Assembly (NCBI GenBank): GCA_902557995.1
Contig: CACECL010000002.1
Coordinates: 29,091-93,090, forward strand
Source of the DNA: an uncultured Pelagibacteraceae bacterium
Lineage (GTDB): Bacteria > Pseudomonadota > Alphaproteobacteria > Pelagibacterales > Pelagibacteraceae
Length of the DNA stretch: 64,000 nucleotides
Reading direction: 5' to 3'
Shown: positions 8,466-25,267 of the stretch, in pieces
Layout: the number at the start of each line of letters is the position of its first letter
How positions within the stretch are numbered: the first letter of the stretch is position 1
Notes under the pieces: generated by a model
What the model was told of the DNA's origin: nothing
What the model saw: the letters and a program-made list of their open reading frames with translations, nothing else
Database searches by the model: none
Program-made: the position numbers and the translations under genes

Positions 8466-9550
8466 TATCTTAATTTTAAGGTAGCTAAACCAATCATTGC
8501 TAGAATGATAGAGATAATCCAAAACCTAATTACAACTGTAGACTCTGGCCAACCCTTTTTCTCAAAATGATGATGAATAGGGGCCATTCTAAAAATTCTT
8601 TTTCCAGTAAGTTTAAACGAAATTACCTGAACCACTACTGAAACTGCTTCTAGTACAAAAAGTCCACCTGTAATAGCTAAAACAATTTCATGCTTTGTGA
8701 TAATTCCTACTGCACCTAAAGACCCTCCAAGAGATAATGAGCCTGTGTCACCCATAAAAATTTTAGCAGGTGGAGCATTAAACCATAAGAAACCTAAACA
8801 AGAGCCAATAATTGCCCCACAAAAAATTGATACTTCACCAGTTCCTTCTATGTAAGGTATCTGTAAATAATTTGAAAAAACGATATTTCCAGTAACATAA
8901 CTTATAAAAGCAAAACATGCTGCAACTAATATTACAGGCACTGTTGCTAGACCATCTAATCCATCCGTAAGGTTAACAGCATTTGACGAACCAATAATTA
9001 CGAATATTGCAAATGGTATAAAAAACCATCCAAGGTTTATAATTAAATTTTTAAAGAATGGAAAATATAAGTTATTTAAATCTTGATAATCATTTAAATA
9101 AACAAACAAACTTACACCAATAATTGCTAATATTATTTGTGAAGTTATTTTAAACTTTGAAGAAATTCCTGATGAGTTACTAAATTTAATCTTCTTAAAG
9201 TCATCATACGCTCCCAACAAACCAAACGTAATTGCTATGTAAACACAAAATAAAATATTAATATTTGATAAATCTGCCCAAAATATTACTGATACCAGCA
9301 AGCCAAATAAAATTATTAAACCTCCCATTGTTGGTGTACCAATTTTTTTAACTATATGATCTTCAGGTCCATCCTCCCGAATTGGATTTAAAATTTTTTG
9401 TTTTGAAAAAAATTTTATAAAAGGACCTCCAATAATCAGTACAATAACGAATGAAGTGAAAAAAGATAAACCTGTTCTAAAAGTTAAATATTTAAATACG
9501 TTTAAAAAACTAAAAGTATCAATAAAATTTAATAAAAATTGATAAAGCAT
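8465..9550 (-). CDS. mraY: Phospho-MurNAc-pentapeptide transferase
   Basis: GTPTMGG, NAVNLTDGLDGLA, FMGDTGS, MAPIHHHFE motifs. Confidence 0.98.
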   Translation of the reverse strand: MLYQFLLNFIDTFSFLNVFKYLTFRTGLSFFTSFVIVLIIGGPFIKFFSKQKILNPIREDGPEDHIVKKIGTPTMGGLIILFGLLVSVIFWADLSNINILFCVYIAITFGLLGAYDDFKKIKFSNSSGISSKFKITSQIILAIIGVSLFVYLNDYQDLNNLYFPFFKNLIINLGWFFIPFAIFVIIGSSNAVNLTDGLDGLATVPVILVAACFAFISYVTGNIVFSNYLQIPYIEGTGEVSIFCGAIIGSCLGFLWFNAPPAKIFMGDTGSLSLGGSLGAVGIITKHEIVLAITGGLFVLEAVSVVVQVISFKLTGKRIFRMAPIHHHFEKKGWPESTVVIRFWIISIILAMIGLATLKLR

Positions 9551-12393
9551 TAATGCAATCCTTTCAGATCTTTTACTATGTCGTTGAATCCTGTCGCAAG
9601 TGAGGCTTTAATCATTAAATAATCATTATTATTTATATCTTTTCTAATCAATTCAATAATTTGAGAATTGTTTAATAAAATCTTGCCTTTTTTCGCTTTT
9701 GAAATACTTGCAAATATTATAGATGCCATTTTACCTTTAACAAATACCTTATCTATCTTAGTTTGATTAATTATTGGAGCAATAGATTGATGAAGTTTTT
9801 TAGAATGACTACCGAGTTCCAACATGTCACCAATTAGTAGATATTTATTTGATTTTTTGGAATTTATTTTATCAAAATTTTTTATTGCTGATTTTAATGA
9901 TAAAGGATTAGAATTATAACTTTGATCAATTAAATTAATTTTTTTATTATCAATTTTTACTACAGAATGATCTCCTCTTCCTTCAGGAATTTTAAAATTA
10001 AGAAAAATATTTTCGTTAAGTTTAAATATATTTTTATAAATACTGATAACTGCTAAAGCAGAAAGTGTATTGAATATATTGTTTTGAAAATCGTTAGATA
10101 ATACAAAATACCTTTTTTTATTATTTAATCTAATATTAATTCTAAAATTTTTTCCAAAGGGCTGTATATTAATTAATTTAATGTCTGATTTCTGACTTTT
10201 AATTCCAAAAGAAACTACTTTAATTTTATTTTCTATGGCAATTTTTTTATGTAATTGAAAAAAGCTGTCATCTGCATTTAATACAGCATAACCATTAGAT
10301 TTTATATTGTTTATAATTTCAGATTTTGCCAAAGCAATTTGTTTAATATTTTTAAAATTTTTAGCATGTGCATAATTTATATTTGTTATCACACCAACGT
10401 CTGGTTTTATAATTTTAGACAAATAGTCAATTTCTCCTTTTTTATCCATTCCAATTTCTAAAATTCCAAATTCATCATTTTGTTTTAAATTAAATAGACT
10501 TAAAGGAACTCCAAATTTGTTGTTATAAGATTTTGGAGAAATACTTACTTTTGAAATTTTACTTAATACATTACCCAACAATTCTTTAAGTGTAGTTTTG
10601 CCACAACTGCCTGTGATAGCTATAATATTTGTATCAATACTTTTTCTAAAAGTTTTTGAAATTTCTGTTAAGAATTTTAAAGTATTTTTTACTTTAATCT
10701 GTCGACTTTTATTAAATTTATTTTGAATTTTATTTACTACAACTAACGATGCCTTTCTTTTGAATGATTGTGGAACATATTTATTACCGTCATTTTTTTT
10801 TCCTCTAATTGCAAAAAAAATATCATTTTTAGTAACTTCTTGAGAATTAATTCTTGCTGTTTTTAAAGGTATGGAAACAGATAATTTTTTAATTTTAACT
10901 GCTTCTTTAACTACATTTAATTTTATATTATCTGATAAATTATTATTTTTATTCTTAATTGCATTTAGAATTACCTTTCTATCTGAAAAGAAAATTTTCT
11001 TATTTCCAATATCTTGTGTTTTCTCATGGCCTTTCCCGGCAACTAACAAAATATCACCTGAATTCAAATTATTAATAGCTTGTTTTATTGCCATTGCTCT
11101 ATTAGGAATTTCTGTAATTCTCCTTTTTTTAATACCTTTTTTTATATCTCTTCTTATTTTTTGAGGATTTTCAAATCTGGGATTGTCATTTGTAAGAATA
11201 ATACTATCTGAAAAGTCACTAGCTATTTTACCCATTTTTGATCTTTTATTTTGATCCCTATTTCCCCCACAACCGAATAGAACTGTGATTGTTTTATTAG
11301 GAAATTGTTCTCTAAGATTTAAAAGACAAGTTTTAAGAGCATCAGGCGTATGAGCATAATCAAGAATTACTTTTGATTGATTTTTAATTTTACCAATTTT
11401 TTCAAATCTTCCCTCAACTGGTCTTAATTTTGGAATTGTATTTAAAATTTTATTTAAACTAATACCGCTATATTTTGCAACAATTATTGCCATCAAAACA
11501 TTTTTTAGTTGTATTTTTCCAATTAAATTTAAATTTATATCCCTTATTGAGCTATTGAATTTAATTCTAAGAAATTGACCCTCTCCTTTGAAATTATGAG
11601 ATAAAAGCTTTAGATTATTTTTCTCATCATTAAGTGTATGCAATTTTAATTTCTTATTAATTGCAATTTTTTTTATGTTTTTAAACTCAGGTATTAATTG
11701 ATCTGTAATTACATTTCCTCTTTTTTTGATTAGATTTTGAAATAAATAAAGTTTTGCTTTAAAATAATTTTTTAAATTTTTATGATAATCAAGATGATCC
11801 TGGGATAGATTAGTAAATATACCCGAATTAAACTTTAAACCATCTAATCTATTTTGCTTTAAACCATGGCTTGAGGCTTCCATAATTACATTTTCTATTT
11901 TTTGATTTTTTAACTTGCTTAATATTTTAGCCAATTTAATTGGGTCTATTGTGGTATTAGATAAATTCAAATTAATACTTTTTGATTTAACACCTAATGT
12001 GCCAATTGAAGCACCTTTTCTATTATTTAATTTTAATATTTGATAATAAAAATCTGCAACTGATGATTTTCCATTTGTACCAGTAACTGCAATTAAATTT
12101 TTTGGTTTTTTATTATAAATTTTAAAAGCAGTTTCAGCTAATAATTTTCTTACATTTTTTGTATGAATATACAAAATTCCATTTTGGAATTGATTTGTTT
12201 TTCTTTCGGTTACAATTATTTTTGATCCTTTTTTAATTGCTTTAGGTATAAATTTATTACCATCAATACTATTTCCTTTGATTGCAAAAAAAATATTATT
12301 TTTTTTAATATTCTTAGTGTCAAATGAAATTCCTGAGAAAGAAAAATTTTTATAATTTTTATTTACTTTATGAAAGTAGTTTCCTAGAAGCAT
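9550..12393 (-). CDS. murE-murF: Fused MurE-MurF ligase (947 aa)
   Basis: N-half: GTNGKSS, MEASSH, DYAHTPD, DNPR; C-half: GSCGKTT, YNN.FG, SYNSNP, GDMLELG; one uninterrupted ORF. Confidence 0.93.
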   Translation of the reverse strand: MLLGNYFHKVNKNYKNFSFSGISFDTKNIKKNNIFFAIKGNSIDGNKFIPKAIKKGSKIIVTERKTNQFQNGILYIHTKNVRKLLAETAFKIYNKKPKNLIAVTGTNGKSSVADFYYQILKLNNRKGASIGTLGVKSKSINLNLSNTTIDPIKLAKILSKLKNQKIENVIMEASSHGLKQNRLDGLKFNSGIFTNLSQDHLDYHKNLKNYFKAKLYLFQNLIKKRGNVITDQLIPEFKNIKKIAINKKLKLHTLNDEKNNLKLLSHNFKGEGQFLRIKFNSSIRDINLNLIGKIQLKNVLMAIIVAKYSGISLNKILNTIPKLRPVEGRFEKIGKIKNQSKVILDYAHTPDALKTCLLNLREQFPNKTITVLFGCGGNRDQNKRSKMGKIASDFSDSIILTNDNPRFENPQKIRRDIKKGIKKRRITEIPNRAMAIKQAINNLNSGDILLVAGKGHEKTQDIGNKKIFFSDRKVILNAIKNKNNNLSDNIKLNVVKEAVKIKKLSVSIPLKTARINSQEVTKNDIFFAIRGKKNDGNKYVPQSFKRKASLVVVNKIQNKFNKSRQIKVKNTLKFLTEISKTFRKSIDTNIIAITGSCGKTTLKELLGNVLSKISKVSISPKSYNNKFGVPLSLFNLKQNDEFGILEIGMDKKGEIDYLSKIIKPDVGVITNINYAHAKNFKNIKQIALAKSEIINNIKSNGYAVLNADDSFFQLHKKIAIENKIKVVSFGIKSQKSDIKLINIQPFGKNFRINIRLNNKKRYFVLSNDFQNNIFNTLSALAVISIYKNIFKLNENIFLNFKIPEGRGDHSVVKIDNKKINLIDQSYNSNPLSLKSAIKNFDKINSKKSNKYLLIGDMLELGSHSKKLHQSIAPIINQTKIDKVFVKGKMASIIFASISKAKKGKILLNNSQIIELIRKDINNNDYLMIKASLATGFNDIVKDLKGLH

Positions 12394-12395
12394 AA

Positions 12396-14084
12396 TTAAT
12401 TAACTTCTATATATTTTGTGGCTAAAATAGGCCCAATTTTATCTATGACTTTCCCAGCTACCTCTACTGAGGTCCAGCCAGCAGTATTATAAAGTGTGCC
12501 CTTCCACCCTCCTTTTCGATGTCTATACTTATAATAATAATTTTTAGATTTTTTTGGAGTATCTAGCATTACAATAAAAACAAATCTTGGATTTGATGTA
12601 GGAAAAATGGAGGCAAAAGTATTTATTTTTGCCTCAGAATATGCTCCTCCCTCAGGTTGATCAGCAGTTCCTGTTTTTCCACCAATTTCATAATTTTGAA
12701 CATCTGCAAATTTAGCTGTCCCTTCCTCAGTATTTACAATTTTTCTTAAAGCGCTAACAACTTGTTCTGAAATACCCCTTTTTAATATTCTTTTATTTTT
12801 TTTATTCAAATTATTTTCTTTATAAATTAATGTTGGCTTAATTTCATATCCACCATTTGATAAAACAGAATAACCTTTTGCTAATTGAAGAATTGTAGTT
12901 GCTATTCCATGTCCGAAAGAAGCTGTAGCCAATCTGCATTTTCCAAAATCATAATTTTTTTGAGGAGCAACTTCTTCAATATCAAAATCAATATCACTTA
13001 ACACGCCAACTTTTTCTAAAAATAATTTAAATTTTTCTGGGCCAATTTTTTGAGCAATTCTGACAGATCCTATATTTCCAGATCTAACTAAAATTTGCTC
13101 TGCAGTTAAATCTGATGGTATTTCATTGTCGTACTCACCTATTCTGTATTTGTCACATTTAATTGATTTAGGTAAATCTAAAAATTCAGTCTCGGGTTTA
13201 ATTACCTTTTCATTTAAGGCGCTAGCAAAAGTAAATGTTTTAAACACAGAGCCGAGTTCATATGTTCCTTTAGTTACCCTGTTAATATAATTTACATCTG
13301 AAATATTTTGTCTTTCATTTGGATTAAAATCAGGCAAAGAAACTAATGATAAAATATTGCCATTATCAACATCCATTAAAATGGCTGCACTACCTTTGCT
13401 TTTAAAAATTTCCTGATATTTAATTAATTCTTTTCTTATTAAAAACTGAATATCCTTATCTAGAGTAAGTCTAATGGGTTTTTTTGATTGTCTAAGTTCC
13501 TCATTCAATGATTTTTCCAATCCAGAAATACCGTTATTATCATCATCTATCTGACCCAAAACATGACTAAAAAGATTTTTTTGTGGGTATATTCTTAAAA
13601 CTCTTTCTTCTGGGACTAAAGATTTATCCCCTAGTTTCATTATTTTTTCATAATTTTCCTCTGAAATTTTCTTCTCTAAATAAAAAAATTTCTTAATTTT
13701 AATTTTTTTTTTAATTTCATTAAAATTTTTATCAGGAAAAATAATATTTAAATTAAGAAGTAATTTTTTTTCATTGATTATATCTTGAGTTCTTAAACCA
13801 ATATCAATCGATTTGACAGTCTTTGCTAAATAATTTCCATTTACATCCATGATGTCTGCTCGATAAAGATGATTTTTAAATGTAGGAAAATTATTTATTT
13901 TTTCTAATTTACTCTTTCGTGAACCTAAATGAACCAGGTGTATTGCATAAATCAAATAGATAATAAAAAAAACAAAGAAAATAAAAGCTACACGATTAAA
14001 TTGAATATTTAATCCATTCTCTTTTTTTTTAAATATAAAATCACTTTTGTAGTCTTCTATTATTAATTTTGATTTATCAGCCAT
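12396..14084 (-). CDS. ftsI: Class B penicillin-binding protein (PBP3)
   Basis: SVFK (SxxK), SGN (SxN) and KTGT motifs; N-terminal TM; dcw position. Confidence 0.93.
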   Translation of the reverse strand: MADKSKLIIEDYKSDFIFKKKENGLNIQFNRVAFIFFVFFIIYLIYAIHLVHLGSRKSKLEKINNFPTFKNHLYRADIMDVNGNYLAKTVKSIDIGLRTQDIINEKKLLLNLNIIFPDKNFNEIKKKIKIKKFFYLEKKISEENYEKIMKLGDKSLVPEERVLRIYPQKNLFSHVLGQIDDDNNGISGLEKSLNEELRQSKKPIRLTLDKDIQFLIRKELIKYQEIFKSKGSAAILMDVDNGNILSLVSLPDFNPNERQNISDVNYINRVTKGTYELGSVFKTFTFASALNEKVIKPETEFLDLPKSIKCDKYRIGEYDNEIPSDLTAEQILVRSGNIGSVRIAQKIGPEKFKLFLEKVGVLSDIDFDIEEVAPQKNYDFGKCRLATASFGHGIATTILQLAKGYSVLSNGGYEIKPTLIYKENNLNKKNKRILKRGISEQVVSALRKIVNTEEGTAKFADVQNYEIGGKTGTADQPEGGAYSEAKINTFASIFPTSNPRFVFIVMLDTPKKSKNYYYKYRHRKGGWKGTLYNTAGWTSVEVAGKVIDKIGPILATKYIEVN

Positions 14085-15414: not shown

Positions 15415-16896
15415 TTAATTTTTTTGTCTTCTTAAAAATGCAGGTATCTCAAGATCATCTTCTTCTTCATGGTCAGAAGATAAAAGTTCATCTGAACTTG
15501 AGGTTTCGGTTTCTGAACTGAATAAATCCGGCGCATCAGAATCCACTCCGAATTCTTTAAGATCATTAGAAAACTCTTCATCATTATTGTTCTCTTGGGT
15601 TTCTTCATGATTAGTTTCTAAAGCCTCTTGTGCAAAAGATTTTTCCATTTTATTAACTGAATTATCTTCAACTATACTTTCACTTTCCATGCTAGTATTT
15701 TGAACATCTTCTTCCTTTATCATTTGGTTATGAGAGCTTTCAGTTTGTTGTTCTTGGATAATCTCATTTTCAAGCTTTAAAGCATTGGCACCATGTGTAA
15801 TAGGGTTTGATGCTGTTGTATTTGAAAAATTAAAAGATTGAGACGATCCCATGTTCGAAAAATCAGAATAACCTGGATTACGATTTTGAATTCGATGAAC
15901 CATATTTACTACTGATTTTGATTCTGGTTGCTGGCCATCTAAAGAAGTAGCAACGATTGATACTCTCATTTTTCCATCTAGCTCTGTATCCGTGATTGCG
16001 CCAATAATTAATTCTGCTTCAGGATCAACTTCTGCTCTAACTTTATTTACCGCCTCATCAACTTCAAAAAGTTTAAGATCTTTGCCACCAGTAATATTTA
16101 CTAGTAATCCTTTTGCACCTTTTAAAGTATAGTCATCAATTAATGGATTGCTAATTGCCATCTCGGCTGCTTTTAGGGCTCTACCTTCTCCCTCAGCTTC
16201 ACCAGTACCCATCATGGCTTTGCCCATTGCTGCCATTACGGTTTCAACATCAGCAAAATCTAAATTGATTAAGCCAGGTCTGACCATTAAATCGGTTATA
16301 CTTTGAACACCATGCATTAAAACATTATTTGAAAGATTAAAAGACTCTTCAAATGTTGTTTGTTCATTTGCTATTTTGAATAGGTTTTGATTTGGGATAA
16401 CAATTATTGTATCAACATGTTTTCTTAATTCTTCCAAACCTTGTTGTGCTCTTCTCATTCTAGAGGGGCCTTCATATAAAAATGGAAGAGTCACAACACC
16501 TACAGTTAAGATATTTAATTCTTTAGCGGCTCTTGCAATGACATGAGCAGCACCAGTACCTGTTCCACCACCCATACCAGCTGCAATAAAAACCATGTTT
16601 GCACCTTGAAGTGTGTTTACAATTTCATTTAAAGATTCGTCTGCTGCGGCTTGCCCTATATCAAGTTTTGCACCTGCTCCTAAACCTTTTGTTAAATTTA
16701 AACCAATTTGAATTCTTGTTTTTGCTTTACTAAGCTTCAAATCTTGAGCGTCAGTATTTACTGCAATAAATTCTACACCTTGTAGATTATTTTCTATCAT
16801 TTCGTTAATTGCATTTCCGCCAGCTCCACCAACTCCTAAAACTAGTAGTCGTGGCTGTAGCTCTTTTATCTCTGGTGCTTTGAAATTAATTGTCAT
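15415..16896 (-). CDS. ftsZ: Cell division protein FtsZ with long acidic linker
   Basis: GGGTGTG tubulin signature, NLDFAD, C-terminal [10 protein letters not shown]. Confidence 0.99.
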
Positions 16897-16921
16897 CTTT
16901 TATCCCCTATTGTTTGTTGTG

Positions 16922-17365
16922 TTAAAGCTCCCATCTAAGATTACCACGATTAATATTTGCTTTTTTTCTCGCTGTTATCTTAAATTTTTCAAATGCTGTT
17001 GGTTCCCATATTTGAAACGTTTGTCCTTGACCAACAAACAACATACTATTTTTTATTTTTGCATGTTTTAATAATTTTGATGAAAGTGAAATTCTGCCCT
17101 CACTGTCAAATTGTAAATTTATACTTTCTGCTAATATTGATGTTGCAAAGTAATCTCTTTTTTCTTCAAAAGGATTTAAAGAATCAATTGCTGAAGAAAT
17201 TTTTTCAATTCTATCTTGAGAACACGCTTCTATAGATGAGTTATTGAATGATGGATAACAAATAACACCATTGTAACCTAAGTTAGATAAATGTGACCTA
17301 AAACTAGCTGGCACAGATACTCTCCCTTTTTTGTCTAATTTGTTTTCGTATGTTGATAAAAACAT
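16922..17365 (-). CDS. mraZ: Transcriptional repressor MraZ
   Basis: DKKGRVSVPA and D.EGRI repeats, F.IW.P. Confidence 0.95.
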   Translation of the reverse strand: MFLSTYENKLDKKGRVSVPASFRSHLSNLGYNGVICYPSFNNSSIEACSQDRIEKISSAIDSLNPFEEKRDYFATSILAESINLQFDSEGRISLSSKLLKHAKIKNSMLFVGQGQTFQIWEPTAFEKFKITARKKANINRGNLRWEL

Positions 17366-17383
17366 AAAACATAAATTCCTTTA

Positions 17384-17438
17384 TTCCCATATAAATGGGA
17401 ATTTATGGGATATTATGGGTTTTACTATTAGACGTCAA
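17384..17438 (-). promoter_or_regulatory. dcw promoter (TTGACG-N17-TAATAT) overlapped by MraZ-box-like TGGG repeats
   Basis: Minus-strand -35 at 17438-17433 and -10 at 17415-17410; plus-strand ATGGG at 17395, 17405, 17415 (10-bp period) and an inverted copy at 17385-17390. Confidence 0.7.
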
Positions 17439-17545
17439 TACCTATTATTTAAATACTATTATTGTTTTAGTAATAAAGAAAATAGACACTTATACTTTAA
17501 AACGAGAACAAACTAAGAAACTTGTATTGATATTTTGATTTAAGG

Positions 17546-17900
17546 TGCCAGATAAACTATAAGCCGGGTTCTGTCATTTAAACCTATCATTTGTCTAGGC
17601 TTGAGATCACTCTCTAGCTCAAGCAACTAACCCTGATGACTAGCCAAGGACGGCTTTTAGTTTTTCAACAATGTCATCTCTACTTAGTCTTGCTCCCAGT
17701 GGGGTTTTCCAGCGTTCATTGTTACCAATAGAACCGGTGTGCTCTTACCACACCTTTTCACCCTTGCCATGTTATGGCGGTTTATTTTCTGTGGCACTAT
17801 CCCTAGGGTTTCCCCCGCCAGGTATTACCTGGCACTGTGTCCTTGTAGAGCCCGGACTTTCCTCTTTAAAAAATTAAAGCGATAAGTCATTTATCTGGCA
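17546..17900 (-). ncRNA. rnpB: RNase P RNA (type A)
   Basis: Minus strand has GAGGAAAGTCCGGGCTC near the 5' end and ACAGAACCCGGCTTA near the 3' end; termini pair as P1 (TGCCAGATAAA/TTTATCTGGCA). Confidence 0.96.
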
Positions 17901-17930
17901 GAGAATAATTTATAATTAAATTTTAAAATT

Positions 17931-18671
17931 TCAAGATAATTCATATAACTTTTTCAATAAATTTTTGCTAATTAATAAGCATTCTAGATCGATAACACCA
18001 TTTACTAAATCTTGCCTGAATCTTCTTTGAAAAGCACTTGTTATAAATTTTGTAGATTTATTTTCAGTAATATTTTTAATTTTTTTATAACCAATTTTAT
18101 GTAAATTTTTAATAAAATTTATTTTTTCTTTTTTATCTACATCTATATTTCTTTTACTTAAAAGATAATTTTGATTTAGTCCATGCCAATAACCAATTTT
18201 TTTTTTTGATAAATATTTCCAAGGAAATTTTTCTCCTGGATCAATTTTTCTATTTGGTGCAATATCTGAGTGACCTAAAATGCAAGCTGGTTTGATTTTA
18301 TATTTTTTTATTAATAATTTACTCAATTTACATACCGATTTAATTTGTTTATTGGAAAATTTTATATAACGGTAATTATGTCCTGGATTACTTATCTCTA
18401 TTCCTATTGAGTGTTTGTTTAATGATTTATATTTTTTCCACTTTGAAATTCCAGCATGCCAAGCTGTGTATAAATCTGGAACTAGGGTCAATATTTCACC
18501 ATTTTTTTTTATAAAATAATGACTACTAACTTTTGATTTAGTTTCTGTTAATCTTTTGATTGCATCTAGCTCTTTTTTTATTCCTGTATAATGAAAAATA
18601 ATAAATTTTATTTTAATTTTTTTTCTTTTTTTTGGATCAAAATTAGGTGAGTAATTCAAAGTTGTATTCAT
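17931..18671 (-). CDS. N-acetylmuramoyl-L-alanine amidase (Amidase_2, AmpD/AmiD-like) with C-terminal PG-binding-like domain
   Basis: HYT, SSHY, AWHAG, SIGIE, GHSDIAP.RK.DPG, AFQRRFR motifs. Confidence 0.92.
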   Translation of the reverse strand: MNTTLNYSPNFDPKKRKKIKIKFIIFHYTGIKKELDAIKRLTETKSKVSSHYFIKKNGEILTLVPDLYTAWHAGISKWKKYKSLNKHSIGIEISNPGHNYRYIKFSNKQIKSVCKLSKLLIKKYKIKPACILGHSDIAPNRKIDPGEKFPWKYLSKKKIGYWHGLNQNYLLSKRNIDVDKKEKINFIKNLHKIGYKKIKNITENKSTKFITSAFQRRFRQDLVNGVIDLECLLISKNLLKKLYELS

Positions 18672-18776
18672 AGGTATTATAGGTATAAATTTAGACCATT
18701 TATTAACACTTTATAGACATCATTTTAAATTAAATGCTATCTTACAATAAATAATGAAATAATGTATAATTTAAGT

Positions 18777-19574
18777 ATGTTTAAAAAATTTACTGTTTTA
18801 ATTGTTACTATTTTTTTTATTACAATAAATGCTTATGCAGGATCAACTGGCGAGCTGGAGCTTAATAAGAATGAACCAAAAGAAATTAAAGATTGTTTTG
18901 AAAAATTAAACAGAGCAACATTTTCATTTAATCAAGGACTTGATAAAGCTATTATAAAACCAATTGCAAAAGGTTATAGAAGTCTACCAGATCCAATTCA
19001 GAAAGGAACAAGTAATGCAGTCAGAAATTTATCTAATCTTATAACAATACCTAACAATGTTTTGCAAGGTGATATTAAAATGGCAGTTATAAATACTGGA
19101 AGATTAGTTATAAACACAACAGTCGGTATTTTAGGAACCATTGATGTTGCTAACAAAATGGGTTTTCCTAAATATGAAATGGAAGATTATGGTCAAACTT
19201 TAGGTGCTTGGGGTGTGGGTCCAGGTTGTTACCTAGTAGTTCCGGTTTTAGGTCCTTCCAATTTAAGAGATACTGCTGGATCTTTTATTAATGTAATGGG
19301 TGGAGATCCCTGGTATAATGTATCAGCACATGGGAACAACGAATTTCTTAGCCAAGATATTTATATGATATCTAAAGCTTTAAGTGGTATTGATTTTAGA
19401 GCAAACAACATTGAGTCATTAGATAACCTAGAAAAAAATTCTATAGATTTCTATGCTTCTGTAAAAAGTTTATATACCCAGGATAGAGAAAATAAAATTA
19501 AGAATAATCAAAGAGGCAATATAGAGGTCCTTTACAAAGATGAAACGGACTGGGAAGAAATAGATAAAAAATAG
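18777..19574 (+). CDS. mlaA: MlaA/VacJ family outer-membrane lipid asymmetry protein
   Basis: E..NR..F.FN..LD, R..INTT.G..G, EDYGQTLG.WG..PG.Y...P.LGPS..RD; start at MFKK chosen (ORF track gives 18762). Confidence 0.9.
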   Translation: MFKKFTVLIVTIFFITINAYAGSTGELELNKNEPKEIKDCFEKLNRATFSFNQGLDKAIIKPIAKGYRSLPDPIQKGTSNAVRNLSNLITIPNNVLQGDIKMAVINTGRLVINTTVGILGTIDVANKMGFPKYEMEDYGQTLGAWGVGPGCYLVVPVLGPSNLRDTAGSFINVMGGDPWYNVSAHGNNEFLSQDIYMISKALSGIDFRANNIESLDNLEKNSIDFYASVKSLYTQDRENKIKNNQRGNIEVLYKDETDWEEIDKK

Positions 19575-19589
19575 TTCCACACATACCCT

Positions 19590-20177
19590 ATGAATTTAAA
19601 AAGAATTTTTATAATTTTATTATTATTTAATTTTAATAGTGCTCATGTTTATTCTATGGCACCTGATGTTTTTATTCAATCTACGGTTAATAGGGCTTCC
19701 CAAACATTATCAGAAAATATCTCAAAAGATGAAAAAATATATCAATTAAAGATAATTGCCAAAGAAACTGTAGATATTAAAGGAGTAGGTTTTTATTCCT
19801 TAGGATCAATAAGAAATAAATTAAATGAAGCTGATAAGAAAAAATATTCTGAACTTTTTGAACTATATTTTCTAAAAAGTTTTTCTAGTAGATTGTCAGA
19901 ATACACAAATCCAAAAATTGAAGTTCAAGGAAAAAAGAGATTGAATGAAAACTACACAATTGTTAATAGCAAATTAATTGCCACATCTGATAGACCTGAA
20001 GTAAAAATTGATTGGAGAGTTTATACAAAGAATTCCAATAATCCTTTAATTAGAGACTTAATTATCGAAGGACTTAGTTTGGCAAGAACTCAGAAAGAGG
20101 AATTTGCTTCGATTTTAAATTCTAATAATAATGATATAAATGCGTTATTTAAAGCGTTAGAAGATTTTTCTAAATAA
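19590..20177 (+). CDS. mlaC: MlaC/Ttg2D periplasmic phospholipid-binding protein
   Basis: Signal peptide; I.D..IEG.SL..T...EF motif; follows mlaA. Confidence 0.88.
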   Translation: MNLKRIFIILLLFNFNSAHVYSMAPDVFIQSTVNRASQTLSENISKDEKIYQLKIIAKETVDIKGVGFYSLGSIRNKLNEADKKKYSELFELYFLKSFSSRLSEYTNPKIEVQGKKRLNENYTIVNSKLIATSDRPEVKIDWRVYTKNSNNPLIRDLIIEGLSLARTQKEEFASILNSNNNDINALFKALEDFSK

Positions 20178-20201
20178 CAAATTTATACAATTTGGTAATA
20201 A

Positions 20202-20246
20202 TGTTGGGCCCGCCAGGACTCGAATCTGAGACCAATACATTATGAG
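20202..20246 (-). repeat. att-like duplicate of the tRNA-Ile2 3' half
   Basis: 42/45 identity to 21383-21427; the exact match stops at the anticodon loop (CTCATAA). Confidence 0.92.
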
Positions 20247-20440
20247 CGTCCTTAACTAACTCAAATTAACTTAGTAATAATTTAATAATTTTAGCTTTAG
20301 ATTTTTTGGTACACCCTCTCGTCACTATAAGGAATAATTTTTGATTAAAATTGAGTGTACGAATTAAAAAAAATTTTTTTAAAATTCATAAATAAAACAA
20401 GTTTGAAGCAAACTTTGAACATACGCCAATGATTTACTTT

Positions 20441-20587
20441 TATAATGCATTGGATTTCAATCCTTTTCTATCGTATTCCGCTTTTTTTATTATCTCCCTT
20501 GTTGCGTAATTCGAGTCAAACGAAAAGGATTGAGACCATAACCAATTACAAACTTTTAACCCTCAAAAAATCAATCAACAATAGGAG
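20441..20587 (+). promoter_or_regulatory. Putative promoter and structured 5' leader of the islet operon
   Basis: TATAAT at 20441; 12-bp perfect inverted repeat 20457-20468/20522-20533; SD AGGAG at 20583-20587. Confidence 0.5.
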
Positions 20588-20596
20588 TTCCAATAT

Positions 20597-20782
20597 ATGG
20601 AAATAGGCCGTGTCTGTAAGTACTGTCACGTGAGTGCTTACGTTGCGTATGATAACTGCGACCCCGTTTATAAACAAACTTTCAAATTCGAAATATTACC
20701 AGGTGAACACAACAGTTTAGTCTGGGATAAAATCATAAAAATATTTAAGAAAAATGGATACAAAGTGGAGCTCAAATCATGA
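20597..20782 (+). CDS. Small hypothetical protein with CxxCH/Cys motif
   Basis: 61 aa; good SD (AGGAG) 9 nt upstream; ATGA overlap with next ORF. Confidence 0.6.
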   Translation: MEIGRVCKYCHVSAYVAYDNCDPVYKQTFKFEILPGEHNSLVWDKIIKIFKKNGYKVELKS

Positions 20783-21354
20783 AAAGATTTTTACTTATTA
20801 TTTTATTACATCTATCTCTTTTTTTTCTTGTATTCGCCTACCAAGCCCAAGCAGAAGAGGACAATGAATGGTATGTAAATGACTTTGGGACCTTTGTTGT
20901 TGCTGCAGTATCAGGTGAAGTTATTCATGGCGATAAATTAAGGTTTTTTATAAAAAAAGAAGATTGCTCTAAAGTTTCAATGATGTTTTCATTTTCGACT
21001 AGTTTAAAAAAAGATGAAATTAAAGAACTCCAAGATAAAAAATTACCTATACGTATTAATGATTGGGACACAATAAGAGGTGCTAGAGTAGTTTACGTTC
21101 ATCCTTTTGGGTTTATGACTATAGTTATGATGCAAACACCAGGATATCACAAAATAAAAGAATTTATTGGTGCACTAAATGCAATGTATACGTTTGAGAA
21201 AATGTTTAGTATTCAATTAGTTAAACAACCACATTATGACCCTGAAGATCACTTTGATATTTTGCGTAATCATTGGAAATTAGATCGTCTTGAAGAAAAT
21301 ATAGAAATAGCACAAAGTATGTGTATTGGACCAGATGAAATAAGAAAAACGTAA
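20779..21354 (+). CDS. Hypothetical exported protein
   Basis: 191 aa; Sec signal peptide ending AQA; two Cys; family not recognised. Confidence 0.75.
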   Translation: MKRFLLIILLHLSLFFLVFAYQAQAEEDNEWYVNDFGTFVVAAVSGEVIHGDKLRFFIKKEDCSKVSMMFSFSTSLKKDEIKELQDKKLPIRINDWDTIRGARVVYVHPFGFMTIVMMQTPGYHKIKEFIGALNAMYTFEKMFSIQLVKQPHYDPEDHFDILRNHWKLDRLEENIEIAQSMCIGPDEIRKT

Positions 21355-21382
21355 AATAATAAATAAATTTATCTTAATAATT

Positions 21383-21459
21383 TGGTGGGCCCGCCAGGAC
21401 TCGAACCTGGGACCAATACATTATGAGTGTACTGCTCTAACCAACTGAGCTACAGGCCC
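21383..21459 (-). tRNA. tRNA-Ile2 (CAT anticodon, lysidine type)
   Basis: Cloverleaf GGGCCTG...CTCATAA...GGTTCGAGTCC...CGGGCCCACCA; G1-C72 paired (not initiator); C4-G69/C5-G68 as in TilS substrates; elongator Met not fully excluded. Confidence 0.88.
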
Positions 21460-21517
21460 AAAACTTAGAGTTAGTTATACTATTTTTTTATAGTTATCAA
21501 TTAAAGATGATAAAAAA

Positions 21518-21592
21518 TGGTGGGCCGTGTTGGTTACGCTCCAACTACCCCTGCAATGTCAATGCAGTACTCTACTATTGAGCTAACGGCCC
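21518..21592 (-). tRNA. tRNA-Val (GAC) with non-canonical T-loop
   Basis: All four stems pair; anticodon loop TTGACAT; encoded CCA; T-loop AGCGTAA. Confidence 0.88.
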
Positions 21593-21595
21593 TTA

Positions 21596-23419
21596 TTAAC
21601 TTTCTAAGAAACTTTTTAACTGCTTTGATCTGCTAGGATGCTTTAATTTTCTGAGTGCTTTAGCTTCAATTTGCCTAATTCTTTCTCTAGTAACTGAAAA
21701 CTGTAATCCAACTTCTTCTAAAGTATGATCTGTATTCATCCCTACACCAAATCTCATCCTTAAAACTCTTTCTTCTCTTGGTGTAAGAGTTGACAAAATT
21801 TTTGTCGTAGCTTCACCAAGGTTTGACTTTATGGCTTGTTCTAGTGGCGCTAATGCTTTTGTATCTTCTATAAAATCTCCCAGACTACTATCTTCTTCGT
21901 CACCAACTGGCTTTTCTAAAGAAACTGGTTCTTTTGAAATCTTTAAAACTTTTCTGACTTTATCTAATGGCATTCTTAATTTTTGAGCCAATTCCTCAGG
22001 GGTTGCTTCTCTTCCAAATTCACTTAAAATTAATCTTTGAGTTCTTACAATTTTATTTATAGTTTCAATCATATGAACAGGTATTCTAATAGTCCTAGCT
22101 TGATCAGCAATAGATCTTGTAATAGCTTGTCTAATCCACCAAGTTGCATAAGTCGAAAACTTGTAGCCTCTTCTATATTCAAATTTATCTACAGCTTTCA
22201 TTAATCCTATGTTACCTTCCTGGATTAAATCTAAAAATTGTAAACCTCTATTAGTGTATTTTTTTGCAATTGAAATTACTAATCTTAAGTTTGCTTCTAC
22301 CATCTCTTTTTTTGCAATTCTTGACTCCTTTTCACCTTTTTGAATTCTGCTTACTAATTTTTTAAAATCTGTTACTGATATTCCAAGCTTGTGACTTATT
22401 TCTATTAATCTTTCTCTAATATTTTTAAATTCATTTTTATTTTTAACAAAAAACTGTTTCCAGATAGCATTTGTATCTAAAAAACTTTTTAAGTTTGGAT
22501 TAATTTCATTACCAACATAAAATTTAATAAATTCATTTCTTGGTATTTTATGATCCATTGCAAGTCTTAAAAGATTACCTTCTAAAGAAATAATTTTTTT
22601 ATTTTCGACGTAATGTTTTTGGACAAGTTCCTCAAGTACAGATGGAGATAATTGAAGAGATTTTATATTTTCTAATATATCATTAACAATTTTTTCATAA
22701 CTTTTCTCTTTGGCACTGGAGAAAGATTGTGAATTAAGAACACAATTTAATTTCTCATTCTGATATTTTATTAATTTTGAATATTCTTTTGTAAGAGTAT
22801 TAATAGTCTTAAGAACCTTTGGTTTTATTTCGGTCTCCATTGCTGCAAGAGTAGGATTAAAATCATCATCATCTTCGCCTGAACCTTCATCTTTATCTGT
22901 TTCACCTGCATTTTTTTGCTTAGCACTTGGTCCTGTAGTTTCATCTTCCATATAGTTTGTATCTATATCGATTATTTCTCTTACAAGAATTTCGTCTTTT
23001 TGTAATAGTTCATTCCATTCAAAAAATTGTTGAGCTGTGATTGGACTTTGAGATAATGCTATTAACATTACATCTTTTCCTGCTTCAATTCTTTTTGCTA
23101 TTGCAATTTCACCTTCTCTAGATAGCAACTCAACACCACCCATTTCTCTAAGATACATTCTTATAGGATCATCACTTTTTTCAATTGTTTTACCTTCTTC
23201 TTTGTTAGAGTTTTCTTTTTTTCTTAAAACTTTAAAATCTGATTTTTTTTCAACTAAAGAAATTTTTTCATCCAAAATATGAATAAAAGCTTGTGCTAAA
23301 TTTTCATCAGATAAATTTCTTTTACCTAATGACTTACTTAACTCTTCGTGGGTTATAAATCCTCTATGAGTTCCACGACCCATTAATCTAGCAAATGATT
23401 TTGTAATTATTCTTTCCAC
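21596..23419 (-). CDS. rpoD: RNA polymerase sigma-70 factor RpoD
   Basis: [48 protein letters not shown]. Confidence 0.99.
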
Positions 23420-23491
23420 AGCAATTTAATGTAAACTAAGATGTCTTATATAATCTCAATTATATAAAAATCCATTATTAATTTTAGCCGA

Positions 23492-25267
23492 TTAATTGAG
23501 ATTCTGCTTTTTTTTAAGCTCTTTTAGCTCATTAAATGTGCTCTCACTCATATCAATTGAAAACTTCGATTCTAACTCTTGGATTCTAAACTCAAGATCA
23601 TAATTCATTAAATCTCTAGAGATGTCCTCTAGTAATTCAATTATTTTTTGATCATCATCAGATTGATTTTTTAAGATATGTTTGATTGGAGCAAATTTGT
23701 TTATTTTTTCTATTAACTGAACATCTAAGTCAAGATCTTGAGTTGTGATTTGCGAACCAGATTTCAATTTTTCAATAATCATTTCAAATATTTTTTTATT
23801 TAACTCAGTAAATAATTTAATATTTTCAATCAAATGAACATTTGCTTGCAACAAATCTAATTTATTTATGACCAAATATAATAAAGAAAACTCTTTTAAT
23901 TCAACTCCAGTCAAAGACTTGCTTTCTTGAAAATATTTTTTTGTGCTCTCTAAAGATTTTGTTTTTTTTGTATAAAATCTTTTATTATTTTGATTGGAAT
24001 GTGGTGTTAGTTCAGAAATTTTTTCTAAAAAATATTCTAAAACATATTTTTTTATAAAATCATCCTTAATTGTATTTGCAATTGCTCTAAGTTTCTTCTC
24101 AAAAATAGCCATCGATGAGGGATTATTTTTAGTTTGTTTTTTATAATGACTAAAAATAAATTGATGGATTGATAATTTGCTCTGCTTTGTAAAATCTACA
24201 AAATTAGCTTTACCATTTTTGTTCACATAGCTATCAGGATCTTCTTTATCCGGTAAAAATAAAAAAGAAATTTGTTTCTCTGGTTTTAGTTCCTTTATTG
24301 AATTTTCTGCTGCTCTTACAGCAGCCTTATAACCACTTTCGTCACCATCGAAACATATTATGATATCATCAAAAAATTGATTTAAAGTTAAAATCTGTTT
24401 ATCAGTTAGAGACGTACCAAGATTTGCCACTACGTTATCAATTCCATTTTTGCTCAGGCCTAAAACATCCATGTATCCTTCAACAAGATAAATATGATCA
24501 ATTTTATTTGAAAGTTTTCTTGCTAAATCTAAATTATATAAATTTGATCCCTTTTTAAAAAAATTTGTCTCAGGTGAATTTATATATTTAGCTAAATAAT
24601 CTAAATTTTCTATAATTCTCCCTCCTAAAGCAATTGGTTGACCTGAAATATTATTGATTGGAAATATTAATCGACCTCTAAATCTTTCTAAATAAATTTT
24701 TTTTTTCTCGTCTAAATAGAATAAACCAGTTTCTACTAAAGTTTGCTCACTATAATCTTTTTTCAATTTTTCAAAAAAATTTGGATTTTTTTCTATATAT
24801 CCTATTTTAAATTTTTTTACTTCATCTTTACTTAGTGATCTATTTTTTAAATAATCCCTAGCAATTGAATAATTTTCATTTTTTAAAAGTTCATTATGGT
24901 AATAGTTTACGTATTCACTAAAAATAGATTTATACTCATTCCACTTTTTTTCTCTTTCTTCATCTTGTTTTGAAAACATATATGGCTGCATCCCCGCTAA
25001 TTGAGCTAGGTATTTAACTGACTCTCCAAACTTTAAATTTTGAGTTTTCATTACAAAATCAAAAATATTTCCATGTTCAGAAGTTGCAAAACAATGATAA
25101 AATTCTTTTTCATCATTAACAGTAAATGAAGGTGTTTTTTCATTTTTAAAAGGTGATAAACCCACAAATTCTTTACCTCGTTTTTTTAAGGAAACAGTTT
25201 TTGATACTACCGTTGAAACTTTCAACCTATTTTTAATTTCATCAAGGTACTCTTTTGGATATTTCAT
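23492..25267 (-). CDS. dnaG: DNA primase
   Basis: EKTPSF, KYINSPET, VEGYMD, FDGD..G, DPD motifs. Confidence 0.97.
   Translation of the reverse strand: MKYPKEYLDEIKNRLKVSTVVSKTVSLKKRGKEFVGLSPFKNEKTPSFTVNDEKEFYHCFATSEHGNIFDFVMKTQNLKFGESVKYLAQLAGMQPYMFSKQDEEREKKWNEYKSIFSEYVNYYHNELLKNENYSIARDYLKNRSLSKDEVKKFKIGYIEKNPNFFEKLKKDYSEQTLVETGLFYLDEKKKIYLERFRGRLIFPINNISGQPIALGGRIIENLDYLAKYINSPETNFFKKGSNLYNLDLARKLSNKIDHIYLVEGYMDVLGLSKNGIDNVVANLGTSLTDKQILTLNQFFDDIIICFDGDESGYKAAVRAAENSIKELKPEKQISFLFLPDKEDPDSYVNKNGKANFVDFTKQSKLSIHQFIFSHYKKQTKNNPSSMAIFEKKLRAIANTIKDDFIKKYVLEYFLEKISELTPHSNQNNKRFYTKKTKSLESTKKYFQESKSLTGVELKEFSLLYLVINKLDLLQANVHLIENIKLFTELNKKIFEMIIEKLKSGSQITTQDLDLDVQLIEKINKFAPIKHILKNQSDDDQKIIELLEDISRDLMNYDLEFRIQELESKFSIDMSESTFNELKELKKKQNLN

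Follow-up and report, generated by a model that had tools for sequence, protein, structure and literature searches.

The insert between mlaC and the tRNA-Ile2 gene of a SAR11 bacterium (positions 20202-21382 of the 64,000-nucleotide stretch analysed here, hereafter the window) is probably a non-autonomous islet of a family designated type B, which would have entered the tRNA gene by insertion of the tyrosine-integrase type and which has spread between species; the window copy is most likely a relic. The window belongs to a SAR11-type assembly (G000; 987 kb, 77% complete) with the gene order RNase P RNA, amidase, mlaA, mlaC, islet, tRNA-Ile2, tRNA-Val, rpoD and dnaG. On the left, the integration slot is bordered by the conserved gene mlaC (19590-20177, plus strand; Pfam MlaC, E 2.5e-28). 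It is followed by a distal partial copy of the tRNA-Ile2 3' end (attR-type core, 20202-20252, minus strand), the islet left arm (20253-20370), the cargo and a residual islet right end (21355-21382), and then by the intact tRNA-Ile2(CAU) at 21383-21459 on the minus strand, of which 21383-21433 form the proximal repeat copy (attL-type core). The neighbouring tRNA-Val(GAC) (21518-21592, minus strand) is a second insertion point in relatives. An Rfam scan of 16500-24000 (E ≤ 1) recovered RNase P RNA and the two tRNAs only, with zero matches in the islet, and a promoter and terminator scan of the region did no better than on shuffled sequences. The RNase P RNA itself (bacterial class A, 17544-17898, minus strand, 285 bits) is ordinary.

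The tRNA(CAT) was called by both ARAGORN and Rfam, and a second copy of its 3' part lies 1181 bp downstream of the gene in the same orientation, beside the mlaC stop codon. As the preliminary description had it, 45 nt of the tRNA 3' end are duplicated with three mismatches: alignment of 20202-20246 with 21383-21427 places these at 20204, 20225 and 20229, and a 42-nt core searched with up to three mismatches has exactly two matches in the window, against 0.00 expected from 100 shuffles. In the 6 nt past the 45-nt block (CGTCCT versus TGTACT) there are two further mismatches, at 20247 and 20250, and similarity ends there; the last well-matched block stops at the anticodon loop (TTATGAG), again as had been described. 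The distal core has therefore accumulated five changes in 51 nt, the CCA end and the T stem among them, and with the CCA end and the T-stem pairing lost it has no tRNA fold. Marine metagenome contigs (three records) span the junction of mlaC, distal copy and left arm in near-identical form, so the repeat is not an assembly artefact.

Three tRNAs with a CAT anticodon are present in the genome, one initiator-like, one elongator-Met-like and the one at 21383-21459, whose first 15 nt are one base off the tRNA-Ile(GAT) of the genus; the genome also encodes TilS. The earlier identification of this CAU tRNA as tRNA-Ile2, the lysidine tRNA, with an acceptor stem of the Ile type, is supported by these sequence features. 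It is 100% identical to the tRNA of the relatives compared, and in nearly all of the listed genomes of the genus the 42-nt 3' core matches exactly, single-base allelic variants being few. These variants were considered as a clue to a host-derived repeat copy, and among the variant-allele species there were zero with an islet.

Empty mlaC-tRNA junctions occur in approximately 20 sister species, in which the full tRNA directly follows mlaC with 5-25 nt between the mlaC stop codon and the tRNA 3' end, and the same slot is filled with other cargo in many further relatives. Since the junction is empty in these species, the ORFs and the repeat core are not a common property of all relatives. The window islet has the repeat at both ends, an intact tRNA and empty alleles in relatives, as an att-flanked island should. 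Across the genus the tRNA core is visible in 228 of 301 genomes and is present in two or three copies in 18 of the 301; tandem core stacks are found in G164 and G324. Inserts of 0.9-4.6 kb also lie between tRNA-Ile2 and tRNA-Val (G002, G035, G015, G013, G029 and G014), and inserts of about 1.3 kb between tRNA-Val and rpoD (G031, G217 and G287). The mlaC-tRNA region is a double or triple insertion hotspot. Three relatives (G020, G041 and G014) have a mlaC-tRNA gap of about 1.1 kb with a type B right arm beside the tRNA and an undetectable distal core, and these inserts are probably older, further decayed islets.

Displaced copies of the tRNA end were sorted by the sequence that follows the core, which separates three types, A, B and C, the window copy being type B. 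In type B the identity ends past the anticodon loop and continues as xGTCCTGAGAGAAC..AAATTAAC; in type A it extends over 53 nt and is followed by ACCAYCCCAATTTTCACAGG, and the tail of the type C displaced core is TAGAACGAAT. More than 25 members of type B were examined. Ten type B islets from genus genomes measure 1.06-2.6 kb, are integrase-less and have cargo unrelated among islets, including T5orf172/MUG113 proteins, McrB-N with a NucS-type nuclease, hydrolases of the S9 and alpha/beta kinds, and YdjM; in type C islets the cargo includes CapR/DUF4379 proteins and trypsin-like proteases. Type B is a SAR11 family of non-autonomous islets with shared arms and one to four unrelated cargo genes.

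The type B arms share one motif of about 24 nt (CAATTTGGTATACAATGAAAAAAT) in direct orientation on both sides. On the left the motif (AATTTGGTATACAATGAAAAA) lies 110 nt past the start of the core, and on the right 91 nt ahead of it, a spacing seen in 9 of the 11 genome-collection contigs with both ends visible and in most metagenome contigs. Searching for an exact 21-mer from it recovered 15 Pelagibacteraceae single-cell or MAG contigs of a one-genome-per-species collection and 23 SAR11 metagenome contigs, all of the latter integrated islets; every one of these matches (15 + 23 contigs) sits at the tRNA-Ile2 slot, where complete islets measure 1.2-2.2 kb. Arm motifs at exact core distances in more than 20 islets are as expected for protein-binding sites under selection, and such an arrangement would suit a split attP with arm-type sites. 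The attP junction predicted for type B would read right arm ...GTTGATTTTACTGGATT, 45-nt core, then AGTCCTGAGAGAAC....

An integrase to go with these arms was sought widely. Searches with nine island integrases (tblastn) found no remnant below E 0.5 in 27 islets or spacers, the 23 metagenome contigs with the arm motif have neither an integrase nor an attP junction, and the 301 genus genomes and the one-per-species, metagenome and viral contigs yielded no integrase accompanied by type B arms. Only one (G324) of the ten type B genomes examined first has any island integrase, these assemblies being incomplete. The window islet likewise has no integrase ORF and no tblastn remnant, so its earlier characterization as integrase-less stands. 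The genome holds a single PF00589 match, outside the islet, and this tyrosine recombinase is probably of the Xer type.

Three relatives do carry a tyrosine integrase at the same tRNA, within islands of 18-19 kb (G150, G324 and G011). The G150 island occupies 17.9 kb between exact repeats, and a 318-amino-acid Phage_integrase protein (L084:17833-18789) adjoins its distal core; the G324 and G011 integrases are 86% identical to it and lie beside the same type A core. As the integrase stands beside the same tRNA end in three relatives, the proposal that the window repeat is a tyrosine-integrase att signature is supported. Type A has a related arm motif at an equal offset, immediately ahead of the integrase start codon, and the window arm motif aligns both with that of its sibling islets and with this integrase-proximal arm of G150, the pairwise similarity of the window left arm to the G150 arm (p about 0.16) not being significant alone. 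Given the longer identity block (53 nt) and different tail, type A islands are not demonstrably cognate to type B. The G150 cargo comprises a double C5 methylase and an SF1 helicase that has an RNase-H-like domain, together with MORN and DUF4116 proteins and a homologue of S20, and the G324 island, collinear with that of G150 over 7.7 kb, has an initiator-type tRNA along with a BpuSI-like restriction-modification set. Translation genes are seen on integrase-bearing islands as the initiator-type tRNA(CAT) of G324 (L095:12885-12961) and the S20 homologue of G150 (L084:2253-2513). No phage structural genes were found among the ORFs scanned in these islands, and the integrase reaches at most 35% identity to any integrase of the phage collection.

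The islets of the window genome, G217 and G287 form one type B subfamily with the same cargo and a diverged arm motif, which in the window is the position-matched GTACACCCTCTCGTCACTATAAGGAATAAT at 20309-20338. Between the window genome and these two species, flanking genes are 71-72% (amidase), 73-74% (mlaA), 77% (mlaC), 83% (rpoD) and 80-83% (dnaG) identical, whereas the islet is 93% identical in the left arm, 98% in the orf53 region, 97-99% in orf61 and 90-94% in orf191. With islets at 90-99% and flanks at 71-83%, the islet must have crossed species boundaries after those species diverged. Seven further islet pairs show the same relation (islets 90-99%, flanks 71-84%). Site-specific placement, empty sites and recent interspecies spread are established for the islet family.

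The copy in the window appears to have decayed since. G217 and G287 have some 500-700 bp more between orf191 and the tRNA, comprising one or two minus-strand ORFs and an arm motif; in the window this right arm is deleted and 28 nt are left, the distal core and left arm being kept. Lacking its right arm and changed at five positions of the distal core, the copy is most likely fixed in place, and we regard it as probably an immobile relic. It had been suggested that the repeat mismatches indicate age. This is weakly supported, as one mismatch may be common to the copy of another species, and the missing right arm is the better sign of erosion.

The cargo consists of three conserved overlapping ORFs, orf53 (20445-20606), orf61 (20597-20782) and orf191 (20779-21354), all on the plus strand, where only two genes had been recognized before. 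The cassette starts at 20371 with the upstream or promoter region of orf53 (20371-20444, plus strand), at which homology to the cassette copies of G006, G281 and G291 begins. Conservation is higher in the region preceding orf61 than in the ORFs (90% versus 84% and 66%, G006). The 53-codon frame of orf53 is open in all 24 distinct homologues, the other frames in 3 and 0 of the 24; indels in the homologues keep the frame, and substitutions fall most often at third, then first, then second codon positions. Probably, therefore, orf53 is a small protein gene that was missed within a supposed non-coding leader; its conserved product has a hydrophobic N-terminus and a basic C-terminus. A riboswitch-like leader in the conserved 226 nt upstream of orf61 was rejected as the main reading owing to this ORF inside it, and an RNA structure overlying the orf53 coding sequence is possible.

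The small Cys-rich protein encoded by orf61 has 64 unnamed marine homologues and is optional in the cassette, being absent from the G324 and G021 variants. The orf191 product, predicted to be exported, has an N-terminal signal-like helix and 266 unnamed marine homologues in which C63 and C182 are invariant; neither it nor orf61 had a significant match in Pfam or PHROGs. The AF2 model of orf191 (pLDDT 92) has as its best fold match by both aligners the Bartonella IalB structure 3dtd (VIA Z 8.7 over 126 aa, Foldseek E 0.02), which is borderline, and the predicted beta fold is possibly IalB-like. The cargo is thus predicted to be an envelope-directed operon of a small membrane-type peptide, a small Cys-rich protein and an exported protein.

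This cassette is accessory (40 of 301 genus genomes) and occupies several loci. Besides the tRNA-Ile2 slot, it lies inverted between the tRNA-Ile2 and tRNA-Val genes in G322, and in G006 (L035:339-6271), G281 and G291 it is found beside priA, next to a gene for a 1531-amino-acid helicase-like protein, with orf191 up to 96% identical in amino acids to that of the window. Its position between the helicase-like gene and priA in three species suggests a second variable locus that trades cargo with the tRNA slot; no repeat or tRNA was seen there. In G188 the cassette (12174-12919) lies inside a 7.7-kb island at an elongator-type tRNA-Met (L116:8648-16446) with an integrase at 8800-9744, the repeat of which is 63 nt long and spans the 5' portion of the tRNA, anticodon loop included. 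An integron gene cassette was also considered and rejected for the window islet: the PF00589 protein was not identified as IntI, there is no attC-like inverted repeat at the cargo end and the site is tRNA-derived.

We propose that site-specific recombination of the tyrosine-integrase type would have taken the islet into the 3' half of tRNA-Ile2, the tRNA being rebuilt on insertion and a displaced copy of its 3' end left beside mlaC. The islets would thus be products of a tyrosine integrase for which the arms would be binding sites, with mobility provided in trans. Movement of type B between species may have used such an integrase in trans, or may have proceeded by homologous recombination via the tRNA, the core and the arms. 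The window copy would afterwards have lost its right arm and gained the distal-core substitutions, leaving a fixed relic. One explanation that dispenses with continuing integrase activity is that one or a few ancient integrations were followed by spread and cargo exchange through homologous recombination alone, with the tRNA, the 45-nt core and the arms as anchors; we consider this a plausible alternative, if not the probable one. Most type B genomes have no island integrase, no attP or circle junction was found in the metagenome contigs or the short marine-run contigs, and cargo is mosaic between shared ends, as in G033 versus G253. One distal-core substitution may in addition be common to the window genome and G217, which fits whole-block homologous transfer better than fresh integrase events. 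However, new cargo could enter by this route only from a source already flanked by the same arms, and neither the arm motifs at exact core distances in more than 20 islets nor the tandem stacks, whose hybrid junctions resemble serial site-specific insertion, are readily accounted for. More tentatively, and rather doubtfully, type B could be, rather than debris, a dedicated non-autonomous cassette system in which a split attP, made up of two motif-bearing arms and the tRNA-Ile2 core around one to four genes, is moved between SAR11 species by rare integrases that are borne on islands or remain unseen. Counting against active trans-mobilization, the cognate integrase of type B was not found, an island integrase occurs only in G324 among the first ten genomes, and there is no attP junction. 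Contigs of four marine runs (Logan) contain the occupied junction and the empty-site joints of relatives with no circle back-joint, these contigs being short and uninformative on excision.

The remaining explanations fare less well. A window copy that is still active and could be mobilized in cis by an incoming integrase is quite unlikely: it has kept its distal core and left arm, but its right arm is missing with 28 nt remaining, its distal core is changed and the one tyrosine recombinase of the genome is probably an Xer protein. The islet had also been interpreted as an eroded island or prophage, or as a cassette mobilized in trans. An eroded island or a cassette mobilized in trans fits the data; the prophage part does not, as phage genes are absent and SAR11-like viral contigs contain neither the core nor the arm motif. 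Pelagiphages of the HTVC019P type do integrate into SAR11 tRNA genes, but the reported sites are tRNA-Cys, tRNA-Leu and tRNA-Arg, not tRNA-Ile2 (bioRxiv 10.1101/410191). The islet has no significant PHROG match, viral contigs gave 0 matches to a 34-nt core, a 19-nt anticodon-side core and the arm motif, and the integrase-bearing islands at this tRNA have genes for restriction-modification, methylase, helicase and MORN proteins, with no phage structural genes among the ORFs scanned; a pelagiphage prophage stump is accordingly very improbable. A 23-nt word from the 3' end did match two GC-rich IMG/VR contigs (L197:406-455 and L198:4089-4135), which have the 3' half only of the tRNA(CAT) of another organism, unrelated to SAR11, up to the anticodon loop, an attP-like state at the same sublocation. 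The chance that the repeat is fortuitous, a local duplication or an artefact of assembly is practically negligible, for beyond the AT-rich background nothing speaks for it, and it is opposed by the shuffled expectation, by the same architecture in dozens of independent assemblies and by the metagenome contigs across the junction.

SAR11, the most abundant marine bacterium, is commonly portrayed as having next to no mobile elements, yet it has an open pangenome. The locus described here is one concrete route by which small gene packets are brought to one tRNA slot and swapped across species, the packet being an envelope-directed three-gene operon here and nuclease, T5orf172, hydrolase or protease genes elsewhere. 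If a trans-acting integrase were found, the system might also be of use for inserting DNA site-specifically into SAR11, in which genetic manipulation is hard. Perhaps, if the dedicated cassette system were real, SAR11 would have a site of gene exchange comparable to integron cassettes or CIMEs.

The CIMEs of streptococcal ICE/IME systems are stretches of att-flanked DNA without recombination genes that lie beside, or in tandem with, integrase-bearing elements. Sibling type B islets agree with this in having two att sites, each with its arm, and in lacking genes for recombination or transfer, as opposed to the window islet, in which the right arm is absent; in G324, moreover, a type B islet stands beside a type A island. 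Type B differs in that no cognate autonomous element was found for it and no conjugation genes occur anywhere, and in that the window copy is one-armed. Classical islands with the anticodon-loop sublocation are reportedly covered by Williams's survey of tRNA and tmRNA integration sites; they share with the window islet a reconstituted tRNA and an identity block that extends from the tRNA 3' end as far as the anticodon loop, and differ in that the window islet has no integrase.

The tycheposons of Prochlorococcus have tRNA-targeting tyrosine recombinases, partial tRNAs at their flanks and degenerate remnants, and their serial integration pushes older elements inward (bioRxiv 10.1101/2020.12.28.424599). 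Compared by island architecture, the likeness lies in a streamlined marine host, tRNA-flanked elements and remnants. The host is another one, however, with SAR11 unmentioned in that paper, and the integrase-less members in SAR11 retain both arms and are much more numerous than those with an integrase. Closest in organism are the tRNA-linked islands of SAR11 itself, which show the same signature as the window islet in the same group of bacteria: in the available passages of that study, partial tRNA repeats mark cassette insertion in integrase-poor islands (Microbiome 2025, PMC11796062). Insertion marked by tRNA repeats as a route of island building in SAR11 is already known (PMC11796062), and the same passages describe no tRNA-Ile2 slot, conserved arms or same-site integrase islands. 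What this analysis adds is the tRNA-Ile2 slot, the occurrence of three att types at one tRNA and the fixed arm geometry of an integrase-less family, together with quantitative evidence of interspecies transfer and a third cargo gene.
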